Below are positions 14,982-32,000 of a stretch of DNA of 32,000 nt, in pieces; position 1 is the first letter of the stretch; each line of letters starts with the position of its first letter. The position numbers and the translations under genes are program-made. The stretch spans positions 390,001 to 422,000 of the forward strand of contig NC_017856.1 of NCBI RefSeq assembly GCF_000260965.1, given 5' to 3'. A model generated the notes under the pieces. That model made no database searches. It had not been told where the DNA came from and was given only the letters and a program-made list of their open reading frames with translations. This DNA comes from Methylophaga frappieri. Its GTDB lineage: Bacteria > Pseudomonadota > Gammaproteobacteria > Nitrosococcales > Methylophagaceae.

Positions 14982-15989
14982 ATGGCCGTGCCATCTGCTC
15001 CTGCTGATACCCCTTTTCTGACCTTGCTGCCAGTTGTTCTGGTGGCCGTTTTGGTCATTTTCTTATCCGGGCTGGGTGCATTGCTGCTCGGCGATTTTGA
15101 TCTGGACTTCGTAACCCTGATGCAAATTTTGTCAGTCCGCAGTCATTCAACTCTGGATTTTGTTGTCTGGGAGTTGCGCTTTCCGCGTTACATTGTTGCC
15201 ATTCTTGCCGGTTCGGCATTGGCCATGGCGGGCACAATTGTCCAATCCATCACACGTAATCCGCTAGGTTCACCCAGTTTGATGGGGGTGACCTCTGGTG
15301 CCGCATTCGCGATTGTCATCAGTTTTGTCATTTTTACCTTTGATACCTCAAGTCGACTGGTATTCGGCACACTCGGCGGCATGCTGGCGGCCTCTTTAAC
15401 TTTTGCACTGGCCTGGAAAACACAGTTAAACCCGATTAATTTAACGTTAGCCGGCATGAGCATTTCCCTATTCTTTATGGCTGCTATCACGGTGATGCTG
15501 GTTTCCGCTGATGCCGATGCGAGAGGTATTTATTATTGGCTTACTGGCAGTCTGGCAAACCTGACATGGCAACATGTTCAGCTGTTATACCCGTACGTGA
15601 TTGCCGGTTTAATTATTGGAGTTGGTTTTGCCCGTCCGCTCAATCTGTTAATGCTTGATGAACAAGTTGCGCATTCGCTGGGCCTGGCAATACAGTGGTG
15701 GCGGCTGGCATTGGGTATCGTTGCTGTCGTCCTGACCGCGGCAACTGTCGCTGTTGCTGGGCCAATCAGTTTTGTTGGTTTAATCGCCCCGCATCTGTCT
15801 CGTTTTGCCTTGGGTATGCCTGCCGCGAATAATCATCGTTTTGTCTTACCGCTGTCGGCGTTGATTGGCGCTGCGCTGGTCAGTAGTGCCGATTTACTGG
15901 CCAAATTTCAGGAAGTGCCTGTTGGCATACTTTGTATTCTGATTGGCGGCCCGTTATTTGTTGTGCTGATTCGGCGGCAACCTCAGTGA
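14982..15989 (+). CDS. FecCD-family iron-chelate ABC permease (first subunit)
   Basis: 335 aa and polytopic. Family-typical LRFPRYIVAILAGSALAMAGTIVQSITRNPL and GPISFVGLIAPH segments. Confidence 0.9.
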   Translation: MAVPSAPADTPFLTLLPVVLVAVLVIFLSGLGALLLGDFDLDFVTLMQILSVRSHSTLDFVVWELRFPRYIVAILAGSALAMAGTIVQSITRNPLGSPSLMGVTSGAAFAIVISFVIFTFDTSSRLVFGTLGGMLAASLTFALAWKTQLNPINLTLAGMSISLFFMAAITVMLVSADADARGIYYWLTGSLANLTWQHVQLLYPYVIAGLIIGVGFARPLNLLMLDEQVAHSLGLAIQWWRLALGIVAVVLTAATVAVAGPISFVGLIAPHLSRFALGMPAANNHRFVLPLSALIGAALVSSADLLAKFQEVPVGILCILIGGPLFVVLIRRQPQ

Positions 15990-17077
15990 GTCGTTCAAGC
16001 TATTGGCCAAAAGTGTGCTCTGCGGTTTGCCGATATCTCAGAGGACAGCTTGGACAGCACCGCTTTACAGCCGTATTGAGTCTCCTGATAAGCCTGCTTG
16101 TGGTACTGGTAATCAGTTCTCTTTTAATGGGATCAGCTTCATTAACGCCGCAGCAGGTTTATAGTGGGTTGTTTGATGGGCAAATTGGCAACACGGCCTA
16201 CGACGTGTTGTGGAATTTGCGTCTGCCGCGCACCCTGCTGGCTGTTTTGGTTGGTGTCCATTTTGCGCTCGCCGGTTTGATCTTACAGGCGGTGATTCGA
16301 AATCCACTGGCTGATCCCAGTGTCATCGGCGTGTCTGGTGGCGCCAGCCTGATGATCGTCATCTTTTTGTTAGTTGCAGATATCATCAACGGCACCTTAT
16401 TTTCAGGTAAAACGGTGGTGTCGTTAACGTGGCTGCCTTTTGCCGCACTTTTGGGCGGCTTGCTGACAGCGGCGCTGGTACTCAGCCTGTCCAAACGTTC
16501 TGGTATGAATCCCACCAAATTAGCGCTTAATGGGGTGGCCGTGGGTGCCATACTGAACGCGGCCGTGATGTGGACTATTCTGGCATGGGGTGGCGGTCGC
16601 ACTGAAACCAGTATTCTTTGGCTGGCTGGCAGTTTTTATGGTCGTGACTTTAGCCATGTCTATACCATACTGCCCTGGACGGTACTGGGATTATTGGCAT
16701 TGTGCCTTGTTCAACGGCCCTTGGCGCTGCTGCGATTTAATGATGATCTGGCACATTCTCTCGGCTTATCTGTTTTTCAGTGGCGGATTATTACCATCAG
16801 CATTGCCGTCGCATTAGCCGCCAGTGCCACTGCGGTCGCTGGCCCGGTTGGTTTTGTCGGTTTAATCGTTCCCCATCTGGCACGCCTACTGGTTGGCAAT
16901 CAACTTTCACATTTAACGATCAGCACCTTGCTGCTGGGCGGTTGTTTGACGCTGGGCGCCGATATTCTGAGTCGTATCTTGGTGCATCCGCTGGAATTGC
17001 CTGCCGGGGCACTGACAACGCTGATTGGCATCCCGGTGCTGCTCTTTTTATTACAACGCCAAAGCAGGGAAAGCTAA
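15986..17077 (+). CDS. FecCD-family iron-chelate ABC permease (second subunit)
   Basis: Start re-called to the in-frame GTG at 15986, which forms a GTGA overlap with the upstream stop at 15987-15989. LRLPRTLLAVLVGVHFALAGLILQAVIRNPL and GPVGFVGLIVPH segments. Confidence 0.85.
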   Translation: MSRSSYWPKVCSAVCRYLRGQLGQHRFTAVLSLLISLLVVLVISSLLMGSASLTPQQVYSGLFDGQIGNTAYDVLWNLRLPRTLLAVLVGVHFALAGLILQAVIRNPLADPSVIGVSGGASLMIVIFLLVADIINGTLFSGKTVVSLTWLPFAALLGGLLTAALVLSLSKRSGMNPTKLALNGVAVGAILNAAVMWTILAWGGGRTETSILWLAGSFYGRDFSHVYTILPWTVLGLLALCLVQRPLALLRFNDDLAHSLGLSVFQWRIITISIAVALAASATAVAGPVGFVGLIVPHLARLLVGNQLSHLTISTLLLGGCLTLGADILSRILVHPLELPAGALTTLIGIPVLLFLLQRQSRES

Positions 17078-17880
17078 TGCTTGAAACCCGCCATCTCTCG
17101 TTATCCTACCAGGATAAGGTCGTGATTCCGTCGACCTCACTGCAATTTGAATCCAGCAAAATCCATTGTCTGATTGGTCCCAACGGTTGTGGCAAATCGA
17201 CGTTATTACGTGGCTTGGCGGGTTTACTCATGCCACTGGCTGGCAACGTTCTGCTGGATAACCGCGATATTGGTCGGTGGCGACGCAAAGCGCTGGCACA
17301 ACGTCTGGCACTATTACCGCAAAACCCGATTGCCCCTGAAGGTATTTCGGTTAAGCAACTGGTCAGTCATGGCCGCTTTCCCTATCAAGGTTTGTTTCGA
17401 CAAAATAGTCAAGAGGATATTGATGCTGTGGACTGGGCACTGGATGCCACCGCCATGGCACCGTTACAACACCGCCTCTTTCAAACACTGTCTGGAGGGG
17501 AACGCCAACGTGCCTGGATTGCACTGGCATTGGCACAACAATCCGATATTTTACTGTTGGATGAACCCACTACCTACCTCGATATTGGTCATCAACTAGA
17601 AGTACTGAATCTGCTCGAAAAGCTGAATCAGCATCATCAGATAACCATCATTATGGTGTTGCACGATATCAATCAGGCAAGCCAATACGCCGACCGAATC
17701 CTTGCGATGCGTGCGGGTCAGATCGTTGCTGATAACCCGCCGTTGGACCTCATGCATTCGGCGTTAATACAGACTGTTTTTGGCGTGAATGTCGAATTTA
17801 TTACTCGTCAACATGGCGATAAAACTTATCGGCACAGTTTACCACTGCCTTCAGCCAGCAAAAATCACACACCGGAATAA
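17077..17880 (+). CDS. Iron-chelate ABC importer ATPase (FepC/FecE/FhuC-like)
   Basis: Start re-called to the ATG at 17077 (TAATG overlap with the permease stop). Walker A GPNGCGKST, signature LSGGERQR, Walker B LLLDEPTTYLD, H-loop VLHDIN. Confidence 0.9.
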   Translation: MLETRHLSLSYQDKVVIPSTSLQFESSKIHCLIGPNGCGKSTLLRGLAGLLMPLAGNVLLDNRDIGRWRRKALAQRLALLPQNPIAPEGISVKQLVSHGRFPYQGLFRQNSQEDIDAVDWALDATAMAPLQHRLFQTLSGGERQRAWIALALAQQSDILLLDEPTTYLDIGHQLEVLNLLEKLNQHHQITIIMVLHDINQASQYADRILAMRAGQIVADNPPLDLMHSALIQTVFGVNVEFITRQHGDKTYRHSLPLPSASKNHTPE

Positions 17881-17906: not shown

Positions 17907-18782
17907 ATGCAACTCACCATCAAAAATATTTCAAAGACTTACTCAAATGGCGTTCATGCCCTGAAACAGGTCAATCTGACTATTGGTCAGGGTATGTTTG
18001 GTCTGCTTGGTCCCAATGGCGCTGGAAAAAGCAGCATTATACGTACCTTGGCAACCTTGCAAGAACCCGATGAGGGCGAGATTTTATTTGATGGTTGGAA
18101 CATTTTAAAAAATCCACAGAAATTTCGGCGACTGCTGGGCTATTTACCTCAGGATTTTGGTGTCTACCCCAATGCTAGTGCCGTCGAACTACTGAATTAT
18201 TTTGCCCGCTTAAAAGGCTTTACTGATGCCAGAAAACGACAGCAACAAGTCCATTATTTACTGGATCTGGTGAACCTCACCAGCGCCAGAAACAAAAATG
18301 TGGATACGTTCTCAGGCGGGATGCGTCAACGCTTTGGGATTGCCCAGACACTGATTTCAGATCCCAAAGTCATTATTGTCGATGAACCCACGGCGGGCCT
18401 TGATCCGGCTGAACGAAACCGTTTTTACGGTATTTTGCACCGTTTGGGCGATCAAGCGATTGTCATCCTCTCAACTCACATCGTTGGCGATGTGACCAAT
18501 CTGTGCAGGGACATGGCTATTCTCAGCCAAGGGCAAATTCTGGCCAGAGGGGTTCCGGCTACATTGATTGCAGACATTGAAGGCCAACTCTGGCGCAAGA
18601 CGGTCACCCCTGAACAGTTGGAACACTATCGCGGCAAATACAAGGTTATTGCCACCCGCCTCCAGCAAGGTGAGGTTCAGGTGATTATTCAATCCCAGGA
18701 TAACCCCGGCGAAGGCTTTATCCCTAAAGCAGCTGACCTGGAAGATTTTTATTTCAGCTATATCCCCGAGCTCGCTATTTAA
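17907..18782 (+). CDS. ABC-2-type transporter ATP-binding protein
   Basis: Walker A GPNGAGKSS, signature FSGGMRQR, Walker B IIVDEPTAGLD. 291 aa with the C-terminal extension typical of ABC-2 ATPases. Confidence 0.9.
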   Translation: MQLTIKNISKTYSNGVHALKQVNLTIGQGMFGLLGPNGAGKSSIIRTLATLQEPDEGEILFDGWNILKNPQKFRRLLGYLPQDFGVYPNASAVELLNYFARLKGFTDARKRQQQVHYLLDLVNLTSARNKNVDTFSGGMRQRFGIAQTLISDPKVIIVDEPTAGLDPAERNRFYGILHRLGDQAIVILSTHIVGDVTNLCRDMAILSQGQILARGVPATLIADIEGQLWRKTVTPEQLEHYRGKYKVIATRLQQGEVQVIIQSQDNPGEGFIPKAADLEDFYFSYIPELAI

Positions 18783-18797
18783 GGACAGAAGACGCGC

Positions 18798-21700
18798 ATG
18801 TTTAAGAGCAGTTTTTTATTTGAGCTCAGATATCGCCTGACTTCCATCGGCACTTGGGTGTGTTTTCTGGCGTTATTTCTGATGGCTTATCGAGAAATGC
18901 TGGCTGGGGAATGGGATGTGTTAATCCAAAGTGGCCGAGTTGCCAGAAACGCGCCTTACACCGTTTACTACCTGTTTATGTATTACACCTTTTGGGCAGC
19001 GACCGTTGGCAGTGCCCTTATGTTGCCAACGTTATTGCGAGATTTGAAATCTGGCTCGGCTGAGCTGCTTTACAGCTATCCTATCAACAGTAAATCGTAT
19101 TTTTTGGGTAAATATCTGGCCAGTATGTTGATATTTATTTTGGTCATGAGTTCGGTTGCGGCTGCGTTTATTACCATGCCATGGGTAACCACTACGCTTG
19201 GCACCCATGATCCTGCCGATTACATTGCAACACCCTGGGCGCATATTGGCCACGCTTTTTTGATCTGGGTGTTGCCTGCCTGTTTCGTCTATGGCTCACT
19301 CACTATCGCCTTGACGGCGATAACTGGTCGCAATGGACCGGTTTACGCCATGATGATGCTTGCCGTCGGTCTGTTTGTCATGATCACCGCCATTTATGGT
19401 GATGGTGCACCACAATCCACACTGGTCCAGGTTCTGGATCCGCTGGGTAAAGTGACGGTTGAAGGCCAAATCTATTACTGGACGGCTGAAGAACGCATGC
19501 AACGGTTCCTGTCTCTTGAAGGTGCACTGTTGCAAAACCGCCTGCTTTACATCGGCTTAGCAGCCGTATTTTTAATCCTGGCGCTATGGCGATTTGATCT
19601 CAGAAAACTATTAGAAAGAGCAAAACACCGAGGGGCTAAACAGACAAAAGAGCCCATACAAGATGCAGACACGCCGGCGGTTTTTCTCGCACCGCGTAGT
19701 ATCCATTTTGACACGCTGACAGCGGCGAACTGGCATTATTGGCTTCAGCACGCGCTGATCTCTGGCTATCAGGCCTTTGCCATCATCTTTAAAAACAAAG
19801 CTTTTTATCTGTCGATGTTAACGTTAATCGCCATGTTGGTCTTGGCTGGTTTTTCTTATGAATCGACTGATTTTGAGGGCACTGGCAAGTTATTGCCCAA
19901 AGTCTTCATTCTGATGCCTGCATTGATTTATCCCAGCCTGATATTTACCTTGGTTGCCGCTGCATTTTTCTCGATTGAGTTGTTTGACCGGGAGCGGAAT
20001 TATCGTCTTAATCAACTGGTTGAGTCCTGTCCGGTGCCTACGTGGTCTTTGTTTTTGACCAAATTGATTGGTGCCGTGCTCATGGCCGCCACGCTCGCTT
20101 TGATACCTGGCTTATCTGTTCTAATCATTCAATTCGGTCAGGGCTTTTTTGACACTAACTGGCTAATGATGGGCCACATCACCTTTTTGGTGTTACTGCC
20201 ATTAATGCTGGCCTATGTGTTAATTGCATTATTTAGCTACGCGCTATTTCAAAATAAAGCATTGGCACAAGCAGTCGCCATCATCATCTGCATCACACCC
20301 GCGATTTTCAATGAATTAAAAACCGTTGAAAACTTCATGCTGTTATGGGCTTGGCCCTTTTTTGTTCAATTATCTGACTTTGATGCCAGTGGCCAATTTT
20401 TGCAGCGTAATCTTCGGTTTTCCGTGTATTGGTTGTCGCTGTATGCGGCTTTGATAATGATCGCTTATTGGCTGTGGCCAAGGGGTACAGCTGCCCCCTT
20501 TGCCATTCGTCTCAAGCAAAGTGCAAACCGATTGGGTACTGTCAGTGTGTCACTGGCGCTTCTGTTTACGGGTATTTTTGGCTGGAGTGCCTTTTCAATA
20601 CACCGTGACATGGTGGTAAACAATAATTACCAAAGCAGTCAGCAAGCACAGGCAGATCAGGCTGATTACGAAAAAAAATATGGCCCTACGCGACGGGTGC
20701 TACAACCCAAAATCGTCTTTGCCGATCTCAAGGTTGATCTGTATCCTGCTGACCGGCAGGCCAAATATGCTGCCGATCTCACCTTGATGAACCTTTACAC
20801 CACGCCCATAGAAGCGTTAACGCTCAATTATGCTGAGTTCACGCAAATCCTCTTGGCAACTTATGATGAACAACCGCTTCAGGCAACGCAGCATGATTTA
20901 ACCCATCGACGGCTGGTGTATCCACTGCCGTCACCGCTGCGTCCCGGCGAGCAGGCGACCTTAAACCTGCAACTTGATGCGACCTATCACAATTTCAGTA
21001 ATGCAGAGTTTGATTATCACGGTACTATCGTGCTGGATGGCAGTTATTTTGCTCACACCATGTGGCCAACTTTTGGCTATATCCGGGATCGAGAGCTGAC
21101 AACAGCGGGTCTCAGAAAAATCTACCAACTTGGCGAACGTCAGCCTTTACCCAGCCATGATAAGGCTGCTCTGGTTTCTGCTCTCATTGATTCTGATGAT
21201 GCCAACCTCATAAATAGTCGGATCCAAATCAGCACCGCAGTCAATCAACGCGCGCTTACCCCCGGCACTGCAGCGTTTGATAACGGAACAGCCTGTCAGG
21301 TTAAAGCGCAACGTCAAGTTTGTATGTATGAAAACAGGCAAGTCACGCCGTGGCATCTGCCAATGGTATCCGGCCGTTACCAACTCACCAGCGCAAGCTG
21401 GCAGCCAGACAATGGCGATCCGCCGGTTCAAATTGAAATCTATGCACATCCGGCGCATCACTACAACGTACAGCGCATGATCGATGCGGCCAAACTGGCC
21501 TTGTCAGCAGGCACTGAACAATGGGGAACCTTCCCCTACCAACAACTTCGCATCGCCGAAATTCCCAACGGCATGGCTGAAACGCAGGTGAGTGGCAATC
21601 TCGTTATTATCCCGGAAAAACAGGCCTGGCTGAATGACAAGCGACCGTCAGCAACGTCAGACTGGATAACTTATCAAATAACACGGGATATCAGTCGTAT

Positions 21701-22442
21701 CTGGTGGCAGCAAATCGCTGTCGCCGCACTGCAAGGCCATCAACTTATCACGCAGGCTATTCCCGCAGTTGAGGGACTTCGGGCACTTGAACACAAATTT
21801 GGCCAACCAGCCAGTACCGACTTTATTGATCAAATCAGTGATGCGTATTTACGGCAACGGACCACTGAAGATCAACAGGAAGCGGCCGTCAGGTACCTTG
21901 ATGATGAAGCGTATGCCAACCACAAGGCAACACTCTCTCTGTTTTCTGCCTACAAACTGCTGGGGCAAGATGCCTATCATCAGCTGTTAAAACGATTTTA
22001 CTCGTCACACCGGCAACTGAGCTCAGCCCCATTTACCAATAGCGGCGCCCTGGTAAAACAACTTCTCAGTCAAGCCAAAGCGGCGCAGAGAAAGCAACTC
22101 GATCCCTTGTTTCATGACAGCCGTTTTTATGACTTTCAGATAGAGCAAACCGACATTTCACCCCGAAATCAAGGCCGCTACCGGGTTCAGGCAACCTTCT
22201 CGGCCACCCAATATCGCTATCTGAATGGAAAAGATGTTGCGGCTGAATACAACGGCTTTGTTCGCGTACAGATAACATCCCAAAAACCTAATTCGCCGCT
22301 TCTTTTTGACCAGCTTGTCCAATTCGAACATGGCCGCGCATTCATAAATATCGAACTGGAGTATGAACCCGCGGCCATCTTGATAAACCCGGACAGACAA
22401 CTGCTGGAGAGAAGTCCGAGCAATAACGCACGACCGTTATAG
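18798..22442 (+). CDS. ABC-2-like polytopic permease (about 13-14 predicted TM segments) fused to a degenerate M1-aminopeptidase-like C-terminal domain
   Basis: Residues 1-600 are two blocks of hydrophobic helices. Residues about 640-1214 are soluble and align by eye with the M1 catalytic core. GAMEN corresponds to GMAET (21570-21584). HExxH corresponds to RDISR (21684-21698). The distal Glu ligand corresponds to Gln (21753-21755). Confidence 0.65.
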   Translation: MFKSSFLFELRYRLTSIGTWVCFLALFLMAYREMLAGEWDVLIQSGRVARNAPYTVYYLFMYYTFWAATVGSALMLPTLLRDLKSGSAELLYSYPINSKSYFLGKYLASMLIFILVMSSVAAAFITMPWVTTTLGTHDPADYIATPWAHIGHAFLIWVLPACFVYGSLTIALTAITGRNGPVYAMMMLAVGLFVMITAIYGDGAPQSTLVQVLDPLGKVTVEGQIYYWTAEERMQRFLSLEGALLQNRLLYIGLAAVFLILALWRFDLRKLLERAKHRGAKQTKEPIQDADTPAVFLAPRSIHFDTLTAANWHYWLQHALISGYQAFAIIFKNKAFYLSMLTLIAMLVLAGFSYESTDFEGTGKLLPKVFILMPALIYPSLIFTLVAAAFFSIELFDRERNYRLNQLVESCPVPTWSLFLTKLIGAVLMAATLALIPGLSVLIIQFGQGFFDTNWLMMGHITFLVLLPLMLAYVLIALFSYALFQNKALAQAVAIIICITPAIFNELKTVENFMLLWAWPFFVQLSDFDASGQFLQRNLRFSVYWLSLYAALIMIAYWLWPRGTAAPFAIRLKQSANRLGTVSVSLALLFTGIFGWSAFSIHRDMVVNNNYQSSQQAQADQADYEKKYGPTRRVLQPKIVFADLKVDLYPADRQAKYAADLTLMNLYTTPIEALTLNYAEFTQILLATYDEQPLQATQHDLTHRRLVYPLPSPLRPGEQATLNLQLDATYHNFSNAEFDYHGTIVLDGSYFAHTMWPTFGYIRDRELTTAGLRKIYQLGERQPLPSHDKAALVSALIDSDDANLINSRIQISTAVNQRALTPGTAAFDNGTACQVKAQRQVCMYENRQVTPWHLPMVSGRYQLTSASWQPDNGDPPVQIEIYAHPAHHYNVQRMIDAAKLALSAGTEQWGTFPYQQLRIAEIPNGMAETQVSGNLVIIPEKQAWLNDKRPSATSDWITYQITRDISRIWWQQIAVAALQGHQLITQAIPAVEGLRALEHKFGQPASTDFIDQISDAYLRQRTTEDQQEAAVRYLDDEAYANHKATLSLFSAYKLLGQDAYHQLLKRFYSSHRQLSSAPFTNSGALVKQLLSQAKAAQRKQLDPLFHDSRFYDFQIEQTDISPRNQGRYRVQATFSATQYRYLNGKDVAAEYNGFVRVQITSQKPNSPLLFDQLVQFEHGRAFINIELEYEPAAILINPDRQLLERSPSNNARPL

Positions 22443-22488: not shown

Positions 22489-22719
22489 GTGAGTGAGACA
22501 GCGCCCCTTAATAAACTGGAACTCGTTGACTATATTCGAACACTAGCCCCTTTTATTGAGCACATTGATGCACAGGATAATCTACTGGAAAGCGGGCTGG
22601 ATTCAATGCATATCCTGCAGTTGGTAAATTACTGCCGCGCCAAAGGCAGTAAAGTCACCTTTACTCAATTGATTGTCTCGCCCACGCTGGCCGACTGGCA
22701 AACCCTCATCTGCCAGTAA
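22489..22719 (+). CDS. Free-standing carrier protein, aryl-carrier (EntB/VibB C-terminal ArCP)-like
   Basis: 76 aa with a GTG start; CAGGA lies 9 nt upstream. DNLLESGLDSMHILQLVNY...VSPTLADWQTLI parallels my recollection of EntB ArCP (DNLIDYGLDSVRMMAL...NPTIDAWWKLL). Ser of GLDS is the likely Ppant site. Confidence 0.72.
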   Translation: MSETAPLNKLELVDYIRTLAPFIEHIDAQDNLLESGLDSMHILQLVNYCRAKGSKVTFTQLIVSPTLADWQTLICQ

Positions 22720-22773
22720 CAACGCCTTTCTTTTTCAGACTGACATCATTCACTTCAATTGACAGGCACAGCT

Positions 22774-24168
22774 ATGCTTAGCAACTTTAAAAATCAACAA
22801 ATTTCCAAACTGGATGCCTCCATGGTGCGTTGTGGCATCACGTTTATTTTTGCCTATCGTTTCTCCGGTAGCATCGATCCGGATTTGCTGGAAGAGAGTG
22901 TCAATACCCTCTTGAGTCAAGTGCCTCGGTTGCAGAAAAAAATGGTTTTATTGGAAAAATATCGAGGCCAGTGGCAAACACCAAACTTCATCAAACCGTT
23001 ATTTTCAATTGATGACAACGCCGTACTGGATGAGGTACTGAGTATGGCCTATCAAAATGTGGGCATGACAAGTGAGGATCCGAAAGTCCCCCCAATGCAT
23101 TTCACCCTGTGTCTTGAACCGACTCAGCCGACGCAGTTCATTATTTTACAAACCGGAAAACACAGTTATTGCGACGGCAAATCCGCAACGATGATGTTTA
23201 ATCACGTTATTACTTTCTACAACGCATTATTGACCGATGATAAACAAGCACAACAAACCACCATAGATGCGGTCAGCGCACTGACCTCGCCGACGCCAGA
23301 TGACGTGTTTGCATTACGCAAACAAACACAGCCTATAATCGAAATTAGTCGCTGGCAACATATCAAGAATATCGCCCGATTAATGACTTACAAAGTGTCT
23401 GATAAAGCGCAGCATAGTACCTCACACAAACAGTTACCGAATCAATTTAAACAATTTCAACAAACCTCAGCCACGCCATTAGTGCAGCGTTTCGATATGT
23501 CGAGCCTCATTGATTATGCAAATCAACACTGTCCGGATGTATCACCAAACAACTTGATTTGTGCCTTGATTGCCAAAGCAACCTATGCCGTTAATCGCAA
23601 ATTCAAGAATCAACCAACCGCGTATCAAATCAGTTTCCGCATGATGATCGATATTTTTAATGCACCAATGCGCAAACGTTTTATCGGTAATTACATTGCT
23701 TACCTGCCAGTGACCGTAGATGCACGTATGCCATTGATGAGCATCGCAGATCGTATTAATGATCGACTTTTTAACGCGCGGTTAAAGCGAGAAGATATCA
23801 GCATGTACAAACTGCTGGAATTTGCGCTTGGCAGTGGTATGGCCAATAAAACCAACGATCCGGTTTCGTATATTATTGCCAATATCGATAATATTACGTT
23901 AAATCACAACCCCACATTAATGCAGGGTGCGACGTATTTAAAAACGGACGTCACCGCTAATTCTGTCCCACAAGACCTGGGGGGAGCTCAGCTCAACAAT
24001 CGCCCGACACTTTGCTTTAATCTCAGCAAAGAAAATCTATTAATGATCAGTTTTTTCAATACCGTGACCAACCCGCTAGCCGGTCAACAACTGCTTGAAA
24101 GTGTTGCTGCCGAGCTCGACAGCCTGGACCTGACGGATGCGGAAAGTGTCACGGTGGCTCATATTTAA
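22774..24168 (+). CDS. Free-standing condensation-domain-like acyltransferase (HxxxDG superfamily; VibH/PapA5-like size)
   Basis: About 465 aa. The single KHSYCDGKS motif fits (H)HxxxDGxS at about one third of the length, as in C domains. ATG at 22774 is preferred over the TTG at 22759. No other family-diagnostic motif recognised. Confidence 0.55.
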   Translation: MLSNFKNQQISKLDASMVRCGITFIFAYRFSGSIDPDLLEESVNTLLSQVPRLQKKMVLLEKYRGQWQTPNFIKPLFSIDDNAVLDEVLSMAYQNVGMTSEDPKVPPMHFTLCLEPTQPTQFIILQTGKHSYCDGKSATMMFNHVITFYNALLTDDKQAQQTTIDAVSALTSPTPDDVFALRKQTQPIIEISRWQHIKNIARLMTYKVSDKAQHSTSHKQLPNQFKQFQQTSATPLVQRFDMSSLIDYANQHCPDVSPNNLICALIAKATYAVNRKFKNQPTAYQISFRMMIDIFNAPMRKRFIGNYIAYLPVTVDARMPLMSIADRINDRLFNARLKREDISMYKLLEFALGSGMANKTNDPVSYIIANIDNITLNHNPTLMQGATYLKTDVTANSVPQDLGGAQLNNRPTLCFNLSKENLLMISFFNTVTNPLAGQQLLESVAAELDSLDLTDAESVTVAHI

Positions 24169-26545: not shown

Positions 26546-27667
26546 ATGGCCAACCAAAATTTACTTATCCTAGGCGGTTTCGGCAGAGTGGGCATGGAAG
26601 CAGCGACACACCTGTTAAAGAATACAACTGCAAATCTGACGCTTGCCTCACGGACAATACGCGCTATCCCATCAGCATTACAGTCTCGATTCGGCGATAG
26701 AATCGCGACCTTGCAACTTGATGTGAATGACGAGAAAACCTTGATTGCTGCCTGTCATCAGGCTGACGTCATGATTTCTTGTATCGGCCCCTCAGGAATT
26801 GTCGGTGACACGGTCGCCCAGGTTTGTAAAAAGACTCAAACGCCGTTGGTGGATGCAGGCGGCTATGATCCAGTCTGGCATCGTCTTGAGCAAGCTGAAG
26901 CTATCACTGCCAGTACAATTCCCTTGATTATTAATGTGGGTTTATTGCCGGGCTTGTCTGGCATGTTTCCCAAGTATGTTATTGATGCAACGGCACAGGG
27001 CAGGAAAGTAAAACAGCTGGATGTGCAGTATGTTGGCAGAGATGCCTGGAGCTACAACTCCGCCTGGGACATCATCAATGGCTTAGGGGATTTCGGTAAC
27101 GAAAAAGGCTTTTGCTTTATCCATCGTCATCAAATGGTCAAGGTCCCGATGCGAAAAGCAACCAATAAAGCCCATTTTCCAGATCCAATTGGCCGTGTCT
27201 CAACCATGCTGCTTTACGCAGAAGAAATCACCCGCCTGGCTAAACAATACGATATTGAAACAGCCCGCGTCTTTGGTGCCAACATTGGCCCAAGAGCCAC
27301 TTTTGTTGCGCTTATTGCCAAAGTTTTTCGCCTGTATCAATCCCGCAAAGGCATTGATCGGGCGGCAAAATGGATGGCTAAAGCCTCTAAAAAGGATATG
27401 CGCAAATTGGCACCCGCCTATGGGATTCAGGTTGATATCACTTATGAGTCAGGCCACCCCGTTACTGCCCAGTTGATGTTGGCAGATACCTATCAGGCAA
27501 CAGGCGCGATTATGGCCATTGCTACCAGAGCAGTGCTTGATGGCAAAACAGCCGGCCCGGGGGTCTATTCCTTGCATGAAGCCATGACAAGCCAGCGTTT
27601 CATGCAAGACCTTGAAGCGAGTGGTCTGTTGACATTTAACACCGCCAAGTCTATCGAAAATAAATAA
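26546..27667 (+). CDS. Saccharopine-dehydrogenase-like NAD(P)-binding oxidoreductase
   Basis: N-terminal Rossmann LILGGFGRVG (GxGxxG), then LDVNDEKTLIAACHQADVMISCIGP, the pattern typical of Sacchrp_dh_NADP proteins. 373 aa. Confidence 0.6.
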   Translation: MANQNLLILGGFGRVGMEAATHLLKNTTANLTLASRTIRAIPSALQSRFGDRIATLQLDVNDEKTLIAACHQADVMISCIGPSGIVGDTVAQVCKKTQTPLVDAGGYDPVWHRLEQAEAITASTIPLIINVGLLPGLSGMFPKYVIDATAQGRKVKQLDVQYVGRDAWSYNSAWDIINGLGDFGNEKGFCFIHRHQMVKVPMRKATNKAHFPDPIGRVSTMLLYAEEITRLAKQYDIETARVFGANIGPRATFVALIAKVFRLYQSRKGIDRAAKWMAKASKKDMRKLAPAYGIQVDITYESGHPVTAQLMLADTYQATGAIMAIATRAVLDGKTAGPGVYSLHEAMTSQRFMQDLEASGLLTFNTAKSIENK

Positions 27668-27677
27668 GGATCTGCCA

Positions 27678-29588
27678 ATGAAATCGTTCAATAAAAAAGT
27701 GATCGTGATTGGCGGTAGTGGTGAAACCGGTAAACGCATCGTCAGCCAACTCAGCAAAACCTATCCCGATTTAATCATTGCAAGTGCGGCACGCCGCCAA
27801 CAACAAAAAGCCGAACTGCCAGAAAATATACAAGCCATCGTGCTTGATATTAATGACAAAAAATCCGCTGTAACAACCATAGCCAATTATGATCTGGCCA
27901 TTATTGCGCTTGGCCCGATGGACCAGTTTGGTAATACGCCACACCAGTTATGTATTGAAGCGGGTGTCGATGCAATTGATATCAATGACAGTCTTGATGC
28001 TGCCGATAAAATTTTATCGCTACATGAACAAGCAGAAAACCATGGTCGTGGCCTGTTTACCGGCATGGGCTTTACCCCTGGTTTATCGACCTTATTGCTG
28101 ATGCAATTAGCCAGCGAGCAGGCTTCCGAAAAAGGGATTTATCGCGTGCGCTTGCATATGGGCGCGGCCTATGGTGGCGGGGAAACCAGCCCCTATGCGA
28201 TGCTTGCCAGTTTCCGAAACAAAATTGATTGCTATCGGGGCAGGCAACGGTTTACGAACAAAACCCCGTGGAAAGACAAACACAGCCAATTCCTGTTTCC
28301 AGGGCAAAGCAAAAAAGCTGCCTTGATTCCTTTCGCCACACCTGAAATTGCCGGTTTATCAGATAGTCGAACTGCCGAGAAAGTATTAATAACCGAACTG
28401 GACAGCCGTTATCAGATTCAATATTTGAATCAAGGCTTTGCTCGCATGCTGGCGCGATGCAACCTCAAACCCGGTGCAGTCGACTATCTTGCCAAAAAGT
28501 TTTATACCAGTGGTCAGTCAATGAAGCACAAAAAAGATGCTGATCCGGATACAACCCTATGGGTCTACCCTGACCAACAACCGGAAAAAGGCTTGATTGT
28601 GCATGGCGTTGTTTCTTCTTATGATTTAACGGCATTAATGGCCTGCGCGGTTGCAGATTGTTGGCTTCAGGGTGAGCTGAGTAGCTATCAGGGTGTGTTC
28701 GGCACTGAACACCTGCCCGCCGATATTCGCGATAAATTCAGCAATGCATTAACAAAGCGCGGCATAACCCGTCGCAAGGCAACAGCAGAAAATATTGACA
28801 TTGCCGATAAACACTTCGGCTGGGTTGATTCGGCCAGCCCTGATATTGCTTCACTTCGCAACTTTGGCAAGAACTGGTATAGCTTTGACAAACCGCACCC
28901 CAAGATGGCCCAACTGCAAAAGCAGTTTTTACTGACGTCTGATATCTGGCAAAGCCTTAAACAAAAGCAAAATTCGCTTGGATTTACCAAATTCGTCATT
29001 AAAACGTTGTTACGTTGGAAGAAACATAATCAGCTGCTTGCCCCCTATCGCGAGAATCGAGAATCAACCAACAACTCCCGCTGGCAGGCAATCACCAAAG
29101 ACGTCAGCATGTTTACTTCCGGCTATTCTTGTGCCCGCGAGGTATTAGGAGATAAAACGGCGTTCTCACAATATCGAAAAATGTTTCTAGAAACCGGAAA
29201 AATGGAAATGCGCTGGCTTTGGCCAAAGCCAGAGAGCTTTGCGGCGTTTTCAGACCCGGAACAGGCTATCATCACCTACTGGTTGGCTTTTATGAGCAAT
29301 TATCAACAACTCGGTGTGTTTCATCTTGATGTAAACCAAAAGCATGAATACGAATGGCAATTACGTATCTCAAATTGTGCCTACGCAACTATGTTCCACG
29401 ATCTGGACTGTGCAGAATTATCGGGTCTGGTCAGAGAAATGGAGCGTGAAGCACTTCACTTCATCACCCATCAGAGTAATATCAAAGTCACTTGGTTAAC
29501 TGGTGCTCGGGGGGCAGCAGAAATCACGCTCAGCTATCCTGGCCATCAAGAACAACAACCAAGCCAGACGGCGGCCCTGTCAGGTTAA
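27678..29588 (+). CDS. Saccharopine-dehydrogenase-like oxidoreductase paralogue with an extra ~240-aa C-terminal domain of unclear family
   Basis: VIVIGGSGETGKRI and LDINDKKSAVTTIANYDLAIIALGP mirror the upstream gene. AAGGA RBS. Residues about 400-636 have no motif I can assign confidently. Confidence 0.55.
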   Translation: MKSFNKKVIVIGGSGETGKRIVSQLSKTYPDLIIASAARRQQQKAELPENIQAIVLDINDKKSAVTTIANYDLAIIALGPMDQFGNTPHQLCIEAGVDAIDINDSLDAADKILSLHEQAENHGRGLFTGMGFTPGLSTLLLMQLASEQASEKGIYRVRLHMGAAYGGGETSPYAMLASFRNKIDCYRGRQRFTNKTPWKDKHSQFLFPGQSKKAALIPFATPEIAGLSDSRTAEKVLITELDSRYQIQYLNQGFARMLARCNLKPGAVDYLAKKFYTSGQSMKHKKDADPDTTLWVYPDQQPEKGLIVHGVVSSYDLTALMACAVADCWLQGELSSYQGVFGTEHLPADIRDKFSNALTKRGITRRKATAENIDIADKHFGWVDSASPDIASLRNFGKNWYSFDKPHPKMAQLQKQFLLTSDIWQSLKQKQNSLGFTKFVIKTLLRWKKHNQLLAPYRENRESTNNSRWQAITKDVSMFTSGYSCAREVLGDKTAFSQYRKMFLETGKMEMRWLWPKPESFAAFSDPEQAIITYWLAFMSNYQQLGVFHLDVNQKHEYEWQLRISNCAYATMFHDLDCAELSGLVREMEREALHFITHQSNIKVTWLTGARGAAEITLSYPGHQEQQPSQTAALSG

Positions 29589-30707: not shown

Positions 30708-30726
30708 GCAAATAAGATTCATTATC
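30708..30726. promoter_or_regulatory. Candidate Fur box upstream of the AraC regulator gene
   Basis: GCAAATAAGATTCATTATC matches 13 of 19 positions of GATAATGATAATCATTATC, with the right half TCATTATC perfect. It lies about 140 nt upstream of the araC-type start. Confidence 0.3.
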
Positions 30727-30819: not shown

Positions 30820-32000
30820 ATGGCACAGTATGTCTATAGCATGAATCGGGTGGGCAAAATTGTTCCGCCTAAACGCGAAATCCTCAAAGATATTTCTCTT
30901 TCTTTTTTTCCTGGCGCCAAAATTGGCGTATTAGGCTTGAATGGTGCCGGTAAATCTTCCCTACTTCGGATCATGGCAGGTGTCGATACCGATTACATTG
31001 GCGAAGCACGGCCAATGCCGGATATCAAGGTTGGTTATCTGCCGCAAGAACCCGAGCTTGATGAATCCAAAACGGTCCGCGAAATCGTCGAAGAGTCTGT
31101 TTCAGATGTGAAAGAGGCATTGGCTGAACTGGATGCGGTTTATGCCGCTTACGCTGAGCCGGATGCAGACTTTGACGCCCTGGCCAAAAAACAGGCCGAA
31201 CTGGAAAACCTGATTACTGCCAAGGACGGACATAATCTGGAAAATGCATTGGAACGGGCAGCCGATGCGCTGCGCCTGCCTGCCTGGGATAGCAAAGTCA
31301 GTGTCTTGTCTGGTGGTGAACGCCGCCGCGTCGCCCTCTGTCGATTATTACTTGATAACCCGGACATGCTCTTATTAGATGAACCGACCAACCATCTGGA
31401 TGCCGAGTCAATTGCCTGGATAGAGCGATTTTTGCAGGAGTATCCTGGTACCGTGGTGGCGATTACCCACGATCGTTATTTTCTTGATAACGCGGCAGGC
31501 TGGATTCTCGAACTGGATCGCGGTCGGGGTATTCCTTATGAAGGGAATTACTCTTCTTGGCTGGAGCAAAAAGAAAAACGACTCGAGCAAGAAGCCAAAG
31601 AAGAAGCGTCGCATCGAAAAGCAATTCAAGCAGAGTTGGAATGGGTACGCCAAGGTGCCAAAGGCCGCCAGACCAAGTCGAAAGCGCGCATGAAACAATT
31701 TGAAGAAATGAATTCTCGTGAGTTTCAAAAACGTAATGAAACGCAGGAAATTTATATCCCGCCAGGTCCTCGCTTAGGTGACAAAGTCATTGAGTTGAAT
31801 AATGTGACCAAGTCGTACGGCGACAAATTGTTGTTTGAAAACCTGAATTTATCCATTCCAGCCGGGGCAATTGTTGGCATTATTGGTCCAAATGGTGCGG
31901 GTAAATCCACTCTGTTCCGTATGATCTCTGGCGAGGAAAAACCAGATGCGGGTGATATCGACATCGGCAGCACAGTCCAATTAGCCTACGTCAACCAGTC
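30820..32000 (+). CDS. ettA: Energy-dependent translational throttle ABC-F protein EttA, 3'-truncated by the window edge
   Basis: Not in the ORF track because no stop is reached. My translation is [54 protein letters not shown]...[16 protein letters not shown]...[11 protein letters not shown]...[16 protein letters not shown]. This is near-identical to my recollection of E. coli EttA ([54 protein letters not shown]...). Confidence 0.95.
   Translation, partial: [393 protein letters not shown]

Follow-up and report, generated by a model that had tools for sequence, protein, structure and literature searches.

The ATPase-permease pair and its gene cluster

The window (the whole stretch of 32,000 nucleotides that was analysed) carries, at positions 17907-22442, two open reading frames that match exactly the coordinates originally predicted for an ATPase and a giant permease; all features given below lie on the + strand. 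The first (17907..18782) encodes a 291-aa ABC-2-type ATP-binding subunit (PF00005, E=3.8e-30) with intact Walker A (GPNGAGKS), signature (SGGMRQR), Walker B (IIVDEP) and H-loop (STH) motifs. Its best NCBIfam matches are of the DrrA, GldA and NodI types, and it shares 50-77% identity with the ATPases adjoining every homologous permease examined. The second (18798..22442) encodes a 1214-aa permease composed of two ABC-2 transmembrane (TM) blocks, a thirteenth TM helix (TM13) and an M1-like pseudo-peptidase. The predicted arrangement is real: an M1-like domain is fused to a permease with two ABC-2 units, and an ABC-2 ATPase is its partner. The pair is a type-V (ABC-2) ABC machine with both six-helix transmembrane domains (TMDs) in one polypeptide. 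Presumably, two copies of the ATPase are needed per complex.

By hydropathy and a full-length AF2 model, the TM helices number 13 and are arranged 6+6+1; the two ABC-2-like blocks first described are thus present, and the helix count, then put at about 13-14, is 13. TMD block 1 (residues 1-284, 18798..19649) comprises an N-terminal amphipathic helix and TM1-6; TMD block 2 (residues 312-558, 19731..20471) comprises a second amphipathic helix and TM7-12, and a disordered linker in the cytoplasm (residues 282-308) precedes it. Both blocks rest on AF2 helices and on weak Pfam matches, to ABC2_membrane_2/3/5 at residues 9-269 and to ABC2_membrane_4 at residues 332-498, with a GldF-like match in block 2. 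TM13 (residues 581-607, 20538..20618), placed by hydropathy, AF2 and charge counts, leads the polypeptide out of the cytoplasm into the periplasm: the loop before it (559-580) holds four K/R and no D/E, and the cytoplasmic loops count 18 K/R against 8 in the periplasmic loops. The soluble C-terminal domain that follows (residues 608-1214) is slightly larger, at about 607 aa, than the ~570 aa first estimated. The helix count of 13, together with the positive-inside rule, predicts that this domain, whose side of the membrane had been left to topology prediction, is periplasmic.

The pair lies, as proposed, inside a peptide-metallophore cluster, which is borne out by its NRPS, TEII, Peripla_BP_2, FecCD, TonB-dependent receptor (TBDR) and AraC genes. 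The two NRPS genes of the cluster, of which the second has a terminal reductase domain, are accompanied by TEII, Peripla_BP_2, two FecCD and an ATPase; also present are the ATPase-permease pair, PCP, a C-like protein, a TBDR within 1.7 kb after the pair, two Sacchrp_dh and AraC, and an EttA-like gene marks the right-hand boundary of the cluster. The importer is already complete (Peripla_BP_2, two FecCD, ATPase and TBDR). No other exporter was found in the window; the region upstream of NRPS1 lies beyond it and might hold one. Next to the pair, no gene for an outer-membrane or adaptor component is present.

An M1 fold with a dismantled active site

The relationship to M1 peptidases, originally claimed by eye, holds, and direct HMM searching is blind to it. 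Peptidase_M1 gave no Pfam match in the query at E<=10, the C-terminal domain had no phmmer match among PDB sequences, and a profile built from the degenerate clade did not recognise M1 either. Structure comparison revealed the fold: with the AF2 model (pLDDT 91.5), all of the top 50 Foldseek matches in the PDB are M1 aminopeptidases, the best being ERAP1 (E=7e-27, ~600 columns aligned, TMq ~0.6; the targets are ~860 residues long and are covered over these ~600 columns only, with TMt ~0.44). In addition, the domain alone matches HExxH-bearing family members by phmmer (E~1e-50), full-length homologues of the query carry PF01433 (Peptidase_M1), and a mixed-clade profile matches ERAP2 at 1.7e-9, with HEVAHQWW aligned on HELAHQWF. 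Three M1-like domains can be delimited: the N-terminal beta domain I (residues ~632-830, 20691..21287; AF2 secondary structure and the ~600 Foldseek columns), the thermolysin-like, former catalytic domain II (residues ~831-1106, 21288..22115; profile alignment, AF2 and Foldseek) and the beta-sandwich domain III (residues ~1107-1214, 22116..22439; AF2 secondary structure). The protein ends there and so has no counterpart of the helical domain IV of M1 aminopeptidases, which would leave the dead M1 groove open.

Every zinc and catalytic position of this fold is replaced, in agreement with the claim of a pseudo-peptidase. Alignments and translation place R963-D-I-S-R967 (21684..21698) at the HExxH position, both zinc His being Arg and the catalytic Glu being Asp, and Q986 (21753..21755) at that of the third zinc ligand Glu, at +19; both replacements had been correctly predicted. 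The GxMEN exopeptidase motif had been read as GMAET, three residues out of register; its equivalent is E928-T-Q-V-S932 (21579..21593; ERAP2 profile alignment, family alignment and translation), and the motif is lost under both readings. The catalytic Tyr of Y-x-K-G, which the original prediction did not consider, is also gone, by a one-residue deletion (YAN-HK vs Y-I-H-Y-x-K-G; Y1039-A-N-H-K1043, 21912..21926, from the family alignment and translation), Y1039 being another, structurally conserved Tyr. Scanning the whole 1214-aa sequence revealed no intact HExxH elsewhere. With neither His, no catalytic Glu, no third ligand, no GxMEN Glu and no catalytic Tyr left, the M1-fold domain predicted in the periplasm cannot act as a zinc peptidase.

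The suggestion that the two Arg form an anion or carboxylate-binding site is unsupported, because orthologues in the same cluster lack the Arg pair: those of Pseudoalteromonas in the syntenic cluster have HSAVAQ, HHLVAQ, HDAVAQ or GEAIAK at the HExxH position. Across degenerate members, R/K at both His positions comes together with retained carboxylates in 18/20 cases, and judging from these alignments the R/K pair looks more like an internal charge replacement of the lost Zn2+ than an anion site.

A degenerate lineage of a fusion family

The query descends from a large uncharacterised ABC-2-permease/M1-peptidase fusion family with a strictly conserved catalytic set. Full-length homologues with Peptidase_M1 have the same architecture and are 21-25% identical to the query. 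Whether homologues retain HExxH, which the first reading had left undecided, was surveyed in the 150 closest cluster representatives: 113/150 retain the H, E, H, E set plus the catalytic Tyr without exception (113/113), and 36/150 are degenerate. The catalytic Tyr is missing in 35/36 of the latter; 19/36 have Glu at the catalytic-Glu position, where the query has Asp964. Monophyly of the degenerate clade is roughly supported by the sequences: in an NJ tree built on all columns, 27/29 degenerate members fall in one 30-tip clade, a grouping that single-domain trees do not resolve. Domains I-II are kept in all members examined, and several members of ~1100 aa are without domain III. At equal TMD divergence, pairwise identity in the former catalytic domain II drops from 45% in the intact clade to 27% in the degenerate clade; no part of the cluster evolves faster (28% identity to P. 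luteoviolacea vs 47-68% for its neighbours). By dN/dS, the dead domain (0.09-0.13) evolves faster than the TMD (0.05-0.06) and is still under purifying selection; it is therefore not junk. The query lineage has lost catalysis but kept its fold through purifying selection, and it occurs in siderophore/TonB-receptor loci.

Synteny of the entire NRPS/TonB-receptor/FecCD cluster extends to Pseudoalteromonas luteoviolacea, P. piscicida and P. tunicata, to a Kangiellaceae MAG and to one metagenome contig. A 54%-identical homologue lies in a different, aryl-capped siderophore cluster. In four degenerate loci (L011, L012, L017 and L022), a co-oriented TBDR lies directly upstream of the ATPase-permease genes (127 nt from the ATPase in L012, 12 nt in L022), and the sampled flanks contain no biosynthetic genes. 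At these TBDR-only loci a dedicated secretion pump would be needless; recycling still fits. A further degenerate homologue, P0025, has neither TBDR nor NRPS nearby. The intact pairs, at the four loci examined, form isolated two-gene modules whose neighbourhoods are unrelated; an adjacent TBDR is present in 0/4. The context sample is small (7 degenerate and 4 intact loci).

Proposed role and known systems

We propose, with moderate confidence, that the pair is an ATP-driven handler of the cluster's metallophore, probably an exporter or recycler, with a periplasmic pseudo-peptidase module; the old peptidase fold is now probably a non-catalytic handling module for an iron chelator. Hydrolysis of ATP by the cytoplasmic ATPase would let the permease drive the peptide metallophore out of the cell, from the cytoplasm or, once iron has been released, from the periplasm (recycling). 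The dead M1 groove would serve, without catalysis, to bind the peptide-like metallophore in the periplasm or hand it off, and the Arg pair would most likely fill the empty zinc site by pairing with whichever carboxylate(s) remain, instead of forming a ligand site. In favour of the exporter reading, the cluster holds a complete importer and the window shows no second exporter. Of the original 'module of an exporter', the non-catalytic M1 module in a metallophore cluster stands, and the export half is weakened: for the four TBDR-adjacent degenerate loci without biosynthesis genes, uptake or recycling is no worse an explanation than primary export.

It is possible, if somewhat doubtful, that the pair acts downstream of the adjacent TBDR in receptor-coupled uptake or processing: the dead-peptidase domain would behave as a tethered binding protein that catches the ferri-metallophore on its way in, and the ABC-2 motor would import it, or mechanically pass it on or strip it (NosDFY- or FtsEX-type mechanotransmission). 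This would account for the co-oriented upstream TBDR and missing biosynthesis genes at L011, L012, L017 and L022, for the TBDR <=1.7 kb after the pair in the query cluster, and for its absence from the intact-clade loci (0/4). A similar layout occurs in the mupirochelin cluster, where the operon mchO (294-aa ABC ATPase), mchP (1020-aa, no recognised domain) and mchQ (TBDR), also present in non-producer strains, has a predicted role in internalisation (PMC10080011); the analogy takes MchP as a putative counterpart of the permease. However, the query cluster already has a canonical importer (Peripla_BP_2, two FecCD and ATPase), few contexts were sampled (7 degenerate, 4 intact), and an exporter beside a receptor is the normal layout of siderophore secretion and recycling loci too. 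Moreover, the characterised ABC-2/type-V systems are, to our knowledge, exporters, flippases or mechanotransducers and none is a solute importer, which also argues against uptake.

The former active-site positions vary freely between same-cluster orthologues, the extra conservation of this fastest-evolving domain is gone (45% to 27%) and the ~1100-aa forms lack domain III, all of which would suit a scaffold without a ligand of its own, kept for folding, assembly or gating of the permease (a plug in the periplasm or a dimerisation surface, for instance) in a general efflux or self-protection pump co-opted by the cluster. We consider this unlikely: a dN/dS of ~0.1 over 600 residues and the constant retention of domains I-II argue for a selected function, although a structural role would be selected too, and the repeated, specific siderophore/TBDR association is unexpected for a generic pump. 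Finally, the domain might still be a peptidase or amidase that uses a non-canonical site (for example, Asp964 and others, or a different metal site) to process the NRPS product in the periplasm, as prodrug peptidases of the ClbP type do. The fold is intact and confidently modelled (pLDDT 91.5), the position of the catalytic Glu is still acidic (Asp964 in the query; Glu in 19/36 degenerate members), and peptidase/ABC fusions in NRPS clusters have precedent in the ClbP family and ZmaM. Nevertheless, such a hydrolase is highly improbable, given the joint loss of three metal ligands, the GxMEN Glu and the transition-state Tyr, the lack of conservation of the replaced positions between orthologues, the absence of HExxH or an alternative motif from the whole protein, and the vanished extra conservation (45% to 27%).

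As a putative metallophore handler with a pseudo-peptidase module, the query can be set beside several known systems. The intact ABC-2 permease/M1 fusions, named 'ABC transporter permease/M1 family aminopeptidase' or 'ABC-2 type transport system permease protein' in databases and among which we found no characterised member, have the same ~1200-aa architecture end to end (6+6+1 TM helices and M1 domains I-III) and the same adjoining ~291-aa ATPase, 50-52% identical even across clades. They keep HExxH, the third Glu and the catalytic Tyr (113/113) and match PF01433, whereas the query has none of these; they are isolated two-gene modules (4 loci examined), whereas the degenerate ones lie in siderophore/TBDR loci. 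With the M1 aminopeptidases (ERAP1/ERAP2/IRAP, PepN, PfA-M1; MEROPS M1, PF01433/PF17900) the query shares the fold of domains I-III, the W-W that follows the former HExxH helix, and the K in the Y-x-K-G region; unlike them, it lacks zinc ligands, GxMEN, catalytic Tyr and domain IV, shows 10-13% identity, and is tethered to a 13-TM ABC permease with a predicted periplasmic location. TAF2 and other MEROPS M1 'non-peptidase homologues' use the M1 fold without its catalytic zinc site as an interaction module, but TAF2 is eukaryotic, soluble and nuclear, with neither transporter fusion nor metallophore link. In NosDFY (with the ABC-2-type NosFY) and FtsEX, the ATP cycle works on a large periplasmic protein, in NosDFY for metal-cofactor delivery; by analogy, the ABC motor of the query may act on its big periplasmic part rather than, or besides, a solute, although in those systems the periplasmic partner is separate, of another fold (the NosD beta-helix; EnvC/PcsB) and not homologous. 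The C39-like domain (CLD) of the haemolysin exporter HlyB, reportedly described by Lecher et al. in 2012, binds substrate and has lost its catalytic residues, and PCAT bacteriocin exporters carry active C39 peptidase domains; here too, one ABC family contains active peptidase fusions and a catalytically dead lineage. The HlyB CLD is papain-like (C39), cytoplasmic and N-terminal in a type IV system, whereas the query domain is an M1 gluzincin, periplasmic by prediction and C-terminal in an ABC-2/type V system; the binding role demonstrated for the former is the one that we infer for the latter.

An ABC-2 permease fused to an M1-like domain

We found both co-directional open reading frames exactly where the original prediction had placed them. 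The first (17907-18782, + strand) encodes a 291-aa ABC ATPase (PF00005, E=3.8e-30) with intact Walker A, signature, Walker B and H-loop motifs, and its best curated-family matches, DrrA, GldA and NodI, are subunits of ABC-2-type systems. The second (18798-22442, + strand) starts 15 nt after the ATPase frame and encodes the 1214-aa permease; the two genes adjoin in every homologous locus examined. The permease scores near threshold with ABC2_membrane profiles on both of its blocks (PF12698, 30.6 bits for a cut-off of 31.6; PF13346, 24.9 bits for a cut-off of 25), and the homologous proteins P0025 and P0029 lie above the cut-offs (42.5 bits with PF12698 and 29.5 bits with PF12730, respectively). 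Hydropathy together with a full-length AlphaFold model (residues 1-1200, pLDDT 86) delineated an amphipathic helix (H2-15) followed by TM1-6, a disordered linker (282-308), a second amphipathic helix (H312-332) followed by TM7-12, a short basic loop, TM13 (581-607) and finally a soluble domain of ~607 residues. The modelled helices and the positive-inside count display a hallmark of ABC-2 permeases: a cytoplasmic N-terminus and a six-helix transmembrane domain (TMD) unit behind an amphipathic interface helix. In this orientation, 18 K/R residues are found among the 138 residues of the cytoplasmic loops versus 8 among the 113 residues of the periplasmic loops; since the cytoplasmic loops are the richer, the positive-inside rule predicts that the C-terminal domain is periplasmic.

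Three independent routes establish the relationship of this domain to M1 peptidases, which had been proposed from an alignment by eye. Firstly, PF01433 is present in homologues that share 21-25% identity with the query, align over 91-100% of it and match it in length, distant full-length homologues scoring 33.9 and 44.1 bits (cut-off 27.7); the soluble domain alone matches HExxH-bearing members at E~1e-50. Secondly, a profile combining the members that keep the zinc and catalytic residues (intact) and those that do not (degenerate) matches ERAP2 (E=1.7e-9), with HEVAHQWW aligned on HELAHQWF. Thirdly, we compared an AlphaFold model of residues 602-1214 (pLDDT 91.5, pTM 0.90) with the PDB using Foldseek: M1 aminopeptidases occupy every one of the top 50 places, with E values from 7e-27 to 2e-24 and ~600 aligned columns, ERAP1 matching with E=6.9e-27 and a TM of ~0.6 over ~600 columns. 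The relationship was visible through the mixed-clade profile and the fold search but not through the other direct profile or sequence searches of the query: we obtained no Peptidase_M1 match at E<=10 in Pfam with the whole protein, the isolated domain or two sub-ranges, no M1 match for the protein in NCBIfam, no PDB match by phmmer and no M1 structure in the PDB with a profile of the 17 closest relatives, all from the degenerate clade. The model has the arrangement that characterizes the M1 fold, a thermolysin-like domain behind an N-terminal beta domain, followed by a beta-sandwich domain with which the chain ends. Helical domain IV, which caps the active site in M1 aminopeptidases, is missing. 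Degenerate members of ~1100-1140 aa (P0008, P0009, P0014, P0017, P0019-P0022, P0026, P0040 and P0049) stop ~100 residues early, without domain III. As many degenerate members lack this C-terminal beta-sandwich, domain III appears dispensable.

Catalytic site loss within a large fusion family

A family alignment, checked against the translation, confirmed that the equivalent of HExxH is R963-D-I-S-R967 and that the Glu serving as third zinc ligand is replaced by Q986, as originally read. The loss of the GAMEN motif was also correctly recognized, but the register proposed for it (GMAET) was off by three residues; the true equivalent is E928-TQVS932, which leaves the conclusion unchanged. No HExxH occurs elsewhere in the whole 1214 aa. 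In addition, a one-residue deletion that had escaped the prediction removes the catalytic Tyr of Y-x-K-G (YAN-HK versus Y-I-H-Y-x-K-G). The query therefore lacks HExxH-x18-E, GxMEN and the catalytic Tyr, and falls below the PF01433 gathering threshold. Since it keeps the M1 fold but not the defining catalytic features, the protein is, judged by its residues, an M1 non-peptidase homologue.

An exhaustive HMMER search with the soluble domain, in which representatives were clustered at 50% identity, returned 1,538 cluster representatives, 370 of them at E<1e-30. Fusions of ~1,200 aa make up nearly the whole of the best 150, and P0027-P0037 are homologous to the query end to end with the same domain order (E 5e-91 to 5e-73, coverage 91-100%, 1174-1218 aa). 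When the best 150 were surveyed for retention of HExxH, 113 proved to have H, E, H and E together with the catalytic Tyr, with zero exceptions; another 36 are degenerate, the Tyr too being absent from 35 of them. The Tyr column itself reads Y in 113/113 intact members and is a gap in 22/36 degenerate ones. Having no intact metallopeptidase site, the query departs from the family majority. Such an all-or-none pattern indicates genuine metallopeptidases in the majority and a truly non-catalytic minority. In a rough NJ tree computed on all columns, 27 of the 29 full-length degenerate members fall inside one 30-tip clade, suggesting that they may be monophyletic; yet NJ trees from TMD columns alone or M1 columns alone did not resolve this monophyly, and we therefore claim no single loss event. 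The ten degenerate representatives that we looked up are all metagenomic.

The mean pairwise identity of the TMD is equal in the two groups (28% versus 27%), whereas that of the former catalytic domain is 45% in intact members, where it is the best-conserved part, and 27% in degenerate members, no better than the TMD. The dead domain nonetheless remains under purifying selection, with a dN/dS of 0.09-0.13 among Pseudoalteromonas orthologues versus 0.05-0.06 for the TMD. Its conserved residues include E940, W944, D955, W969, Y1017, E1024, E1028 and Y1039. R or K stands at both His positions in 20/36 degenerate members, and the neighbouring acidic residue is retained in 18 of these 20; cationic side chains probably fill the former zinc site. 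The more specific proposal of a two-Arg anion-binding site was not supported, because orthologues from the same cluster carry HSAVAQ, HHLVAQ, HDAVAQ or GEAIAK at this place.

Intact fusions (for example P0053, P0028 and, from Hymenobacter nivis, P0029; alignment A4) have FAQSF at the GxMEN position, without the N-terminus-binding Glu, show an HExxH-x19-E spacing and are also devoid of domain IV. With these features, they may not be aminopeptidases but endopeptidases, or enzymes with N-blocked peptides as substrates. The fusion is annotated in databases under names such as 'ABC transporter permease/M1 family aminopeptidase'; our literature search found no paper or experimental study on permease/M1 fusions, and we found no curated NCBIfam model for the family.

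Metallophore cluster and neighbourhoods of homologues

The pair is encoded inside, and conserved together with, a metallophore biosynthesis and uptake cluster. The cluster runs from an NRPS with three adenylation domains, a C-A-T-reductase NRPS and a type II thioesterase, through a Peripla_BP_2 protein, two FecCD permeases and an importer ATPase, to the ABC-2 pair; next come a 76-aa carrier protein, a 469-aa HxxxDG protein, a TonB-dependent receptor (TBDR), two saccharopine-dehydrogenase-like proteins and a divergent AraC regulator. An EttA/ABC-F-like housekeeping gene (~30850-32000, + strand), truncated at the window's right end, marks the right border. The frames listed for the second FecCD permease (15932-17077, + strand) and the importer ATPase (16780-17880, + strand) overlap by ~300 nt; their true starts are probably internal, that of the ATPase lying near 17077 ('MLETRHLSL'), as in the Pseudoalteromonas loci.

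The carrier protein (22489-22719, + strand; GLDSM phosphopantetheine motif) and the 469-aa protein (22759-24168, + strand; HxxxDG motif KHSYCDGKS, no Pfam match) are probably a free-standing condensation/acyltransferase pair. P. tunicata and the homologous locus L016 also have both genes, and a Kangiellaceae MAG carries at least the one for the 469-aa protein; the P. luteoviolacea loci lack the pair. The saccharopine-dehydrogenase-like proteins (373 and 636 aa; 26546-29588, + strand) are kept in every cluster copy, and their presence beside a reductase-terminated NRPS suggests reductive chemistry on a peptide aldehyde. Alterobactin and amphibactin were considered as possible products and rejected, since neither the four-module NRPS with its terminal reductase nor the set of tailoring genes fits them. 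Scanning for Fur boxes yielded a single weak match (14/19), located at 30708 and upstream of the AraC gene; as this does not exceed the shuffled expectation, we claim no iron regulation from the sequence.

Locus searches with the narrower alignments A3 and A7 yielded seven loci in genomes and four short ones in metagenomes. The same gene order is found in six Pseudoalteromonas genomes, the Kangiellaceae MAG, P. tunicata, P. piscicida and one metagenome contig, and conservation within the cluster is lowest for the permease (40% versus 47-68%); our literature search found no description of the Pseudoalteromonas cluster. A 54%-identical degenerate member sits in a different, aryl-capped siderophore cluster, which comprises a chorismate-utilising/adenylating enzyme, an NRPS, two YbtPQ-like half-transporters and a PPTase, and one further degenerate member lies in an unrelated small-molecule cluster. 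At four more loci (L011, L012, L017 and L022), a TBDR lies directly upstream of the degenerate ATPase-permease pair in the same orientation, and the flanks that were sampled contain no NRPS or biosynthetic genes. The pair of four intact members stands isolated, as a module of two genes in unrelated surroundings. This small sample points to a possible recruitment of the degenerate lineage to iron/siderophore loci.

A comparable layout is described in the mupirochelin cluster of Pseudomonas sp. NCIMB 10586, with an operon composed of mchO (294-aa ABC ATPase), mchP (1020 aa, no InterPro domain) and mchQ (TBDR), which is also present in non-producer strains (PMC10080011). The operon resembles the TBDR-linked degenerate modules in gene layout; a homologue search from the family protein P0058 found no Pseudomonas protein, and a profile search with alignment A6 returned no further family members.

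Possible roles and comparison with known systems

Our analysis shows an ABC-2 ATPase and a fused double permease carrying a zinc-less, catalytically dead yet selected M1 fold, predicted to be periplasmic, that are conserved in a metallophore cluster. Given that a full importer is already encoded in the cluster and that the window shows no exporter besides the pair, we favour, at about an even chance, a pair that moves the metallophore out of the cell. It would do so by primary secretion, by recycling from the periplasm or by both, the open, dead M1 groove acting as a periplasmic module for binding or hand-off. Of the two routes, recycling accounts better for the receptor-only loci than primary secretion does. 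These same TBDR-ATPase-permease loci keep alive a rather unlikely alternative, in which the pair would serve receptor-coupled uptake or mechanotransduction, and uptake is what was predicted by the mupirochelin authors for the similarly arranged mchOPQ operon (PMC10080011). That the dead M1 domain is a pure scaffold we regard as improbable, and residual hydrolase activity of the M1-like domain as very improbable indeed.

Beyond export or recycling by this pair, we tentatively propose a wider and doubtful generalization: the degenerate clade would be an unrecognised siderophore-handling class, in which an ABC-2 motor works with a TBDR and a zinc-less periplasmic M1 fold captures, strips or recycles (ferri-)metallophores, and the parent family would consist of ATP-coupled periplasmic metallopeptidases, none of them characterised. 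In that case, one unstudied function would be common to receptor-adjacent 'membrane protein' genes at several siderophore loci, perhaps also to mchOP. Of all the steps in siderophore traffic, export and periplasmic recycling are the least well understood, and it is rare for ABC-2 systems to be assigned to them; a selected pseudo-enzyme module that marks an ABC-2 lineage co-travelling with TBDRs and at least two kinds of siderophore cluster offers a testable candidate. The finding also exposes a very large family of ABC-2 permease fusions (>1,500 representatives) with a strictly conserved, presumably periplasmic M1 peptidase. Within it, a natural experiment in pseudo-enzyme evolution has taken place: five catalytic positions disappeared as a set, cationic residues took over the places of the zinc ligands, the domain stayed conserved though less strictly, and the genomic context changed.

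The pseudo-enzyme concept is already familiar; what is new here is a dead M1 module, predicted to be periplasmic, on an ABC-2 permease, its link to siderophore and receptor loci, and how large the unstudied parent family is. Among peptidase-containing ABC exporters, the nearest functional precedent is HlyB, which carries an inactive C39-like domain, and the likeness is one of analogy, not homology. In PCAT/HlyB-CLD exporters, the papain-like C39 domain is N-terminal and cytoplasmic on a type IV exporter, whereas the domain described here is C-terminal, has an M1 fold and is predicted to be periplasmic. NosDFY and FtsEX are ABC motors that act on periplasmic partners, and their resemblance to the pair is likewise by analogy only, with no homology.
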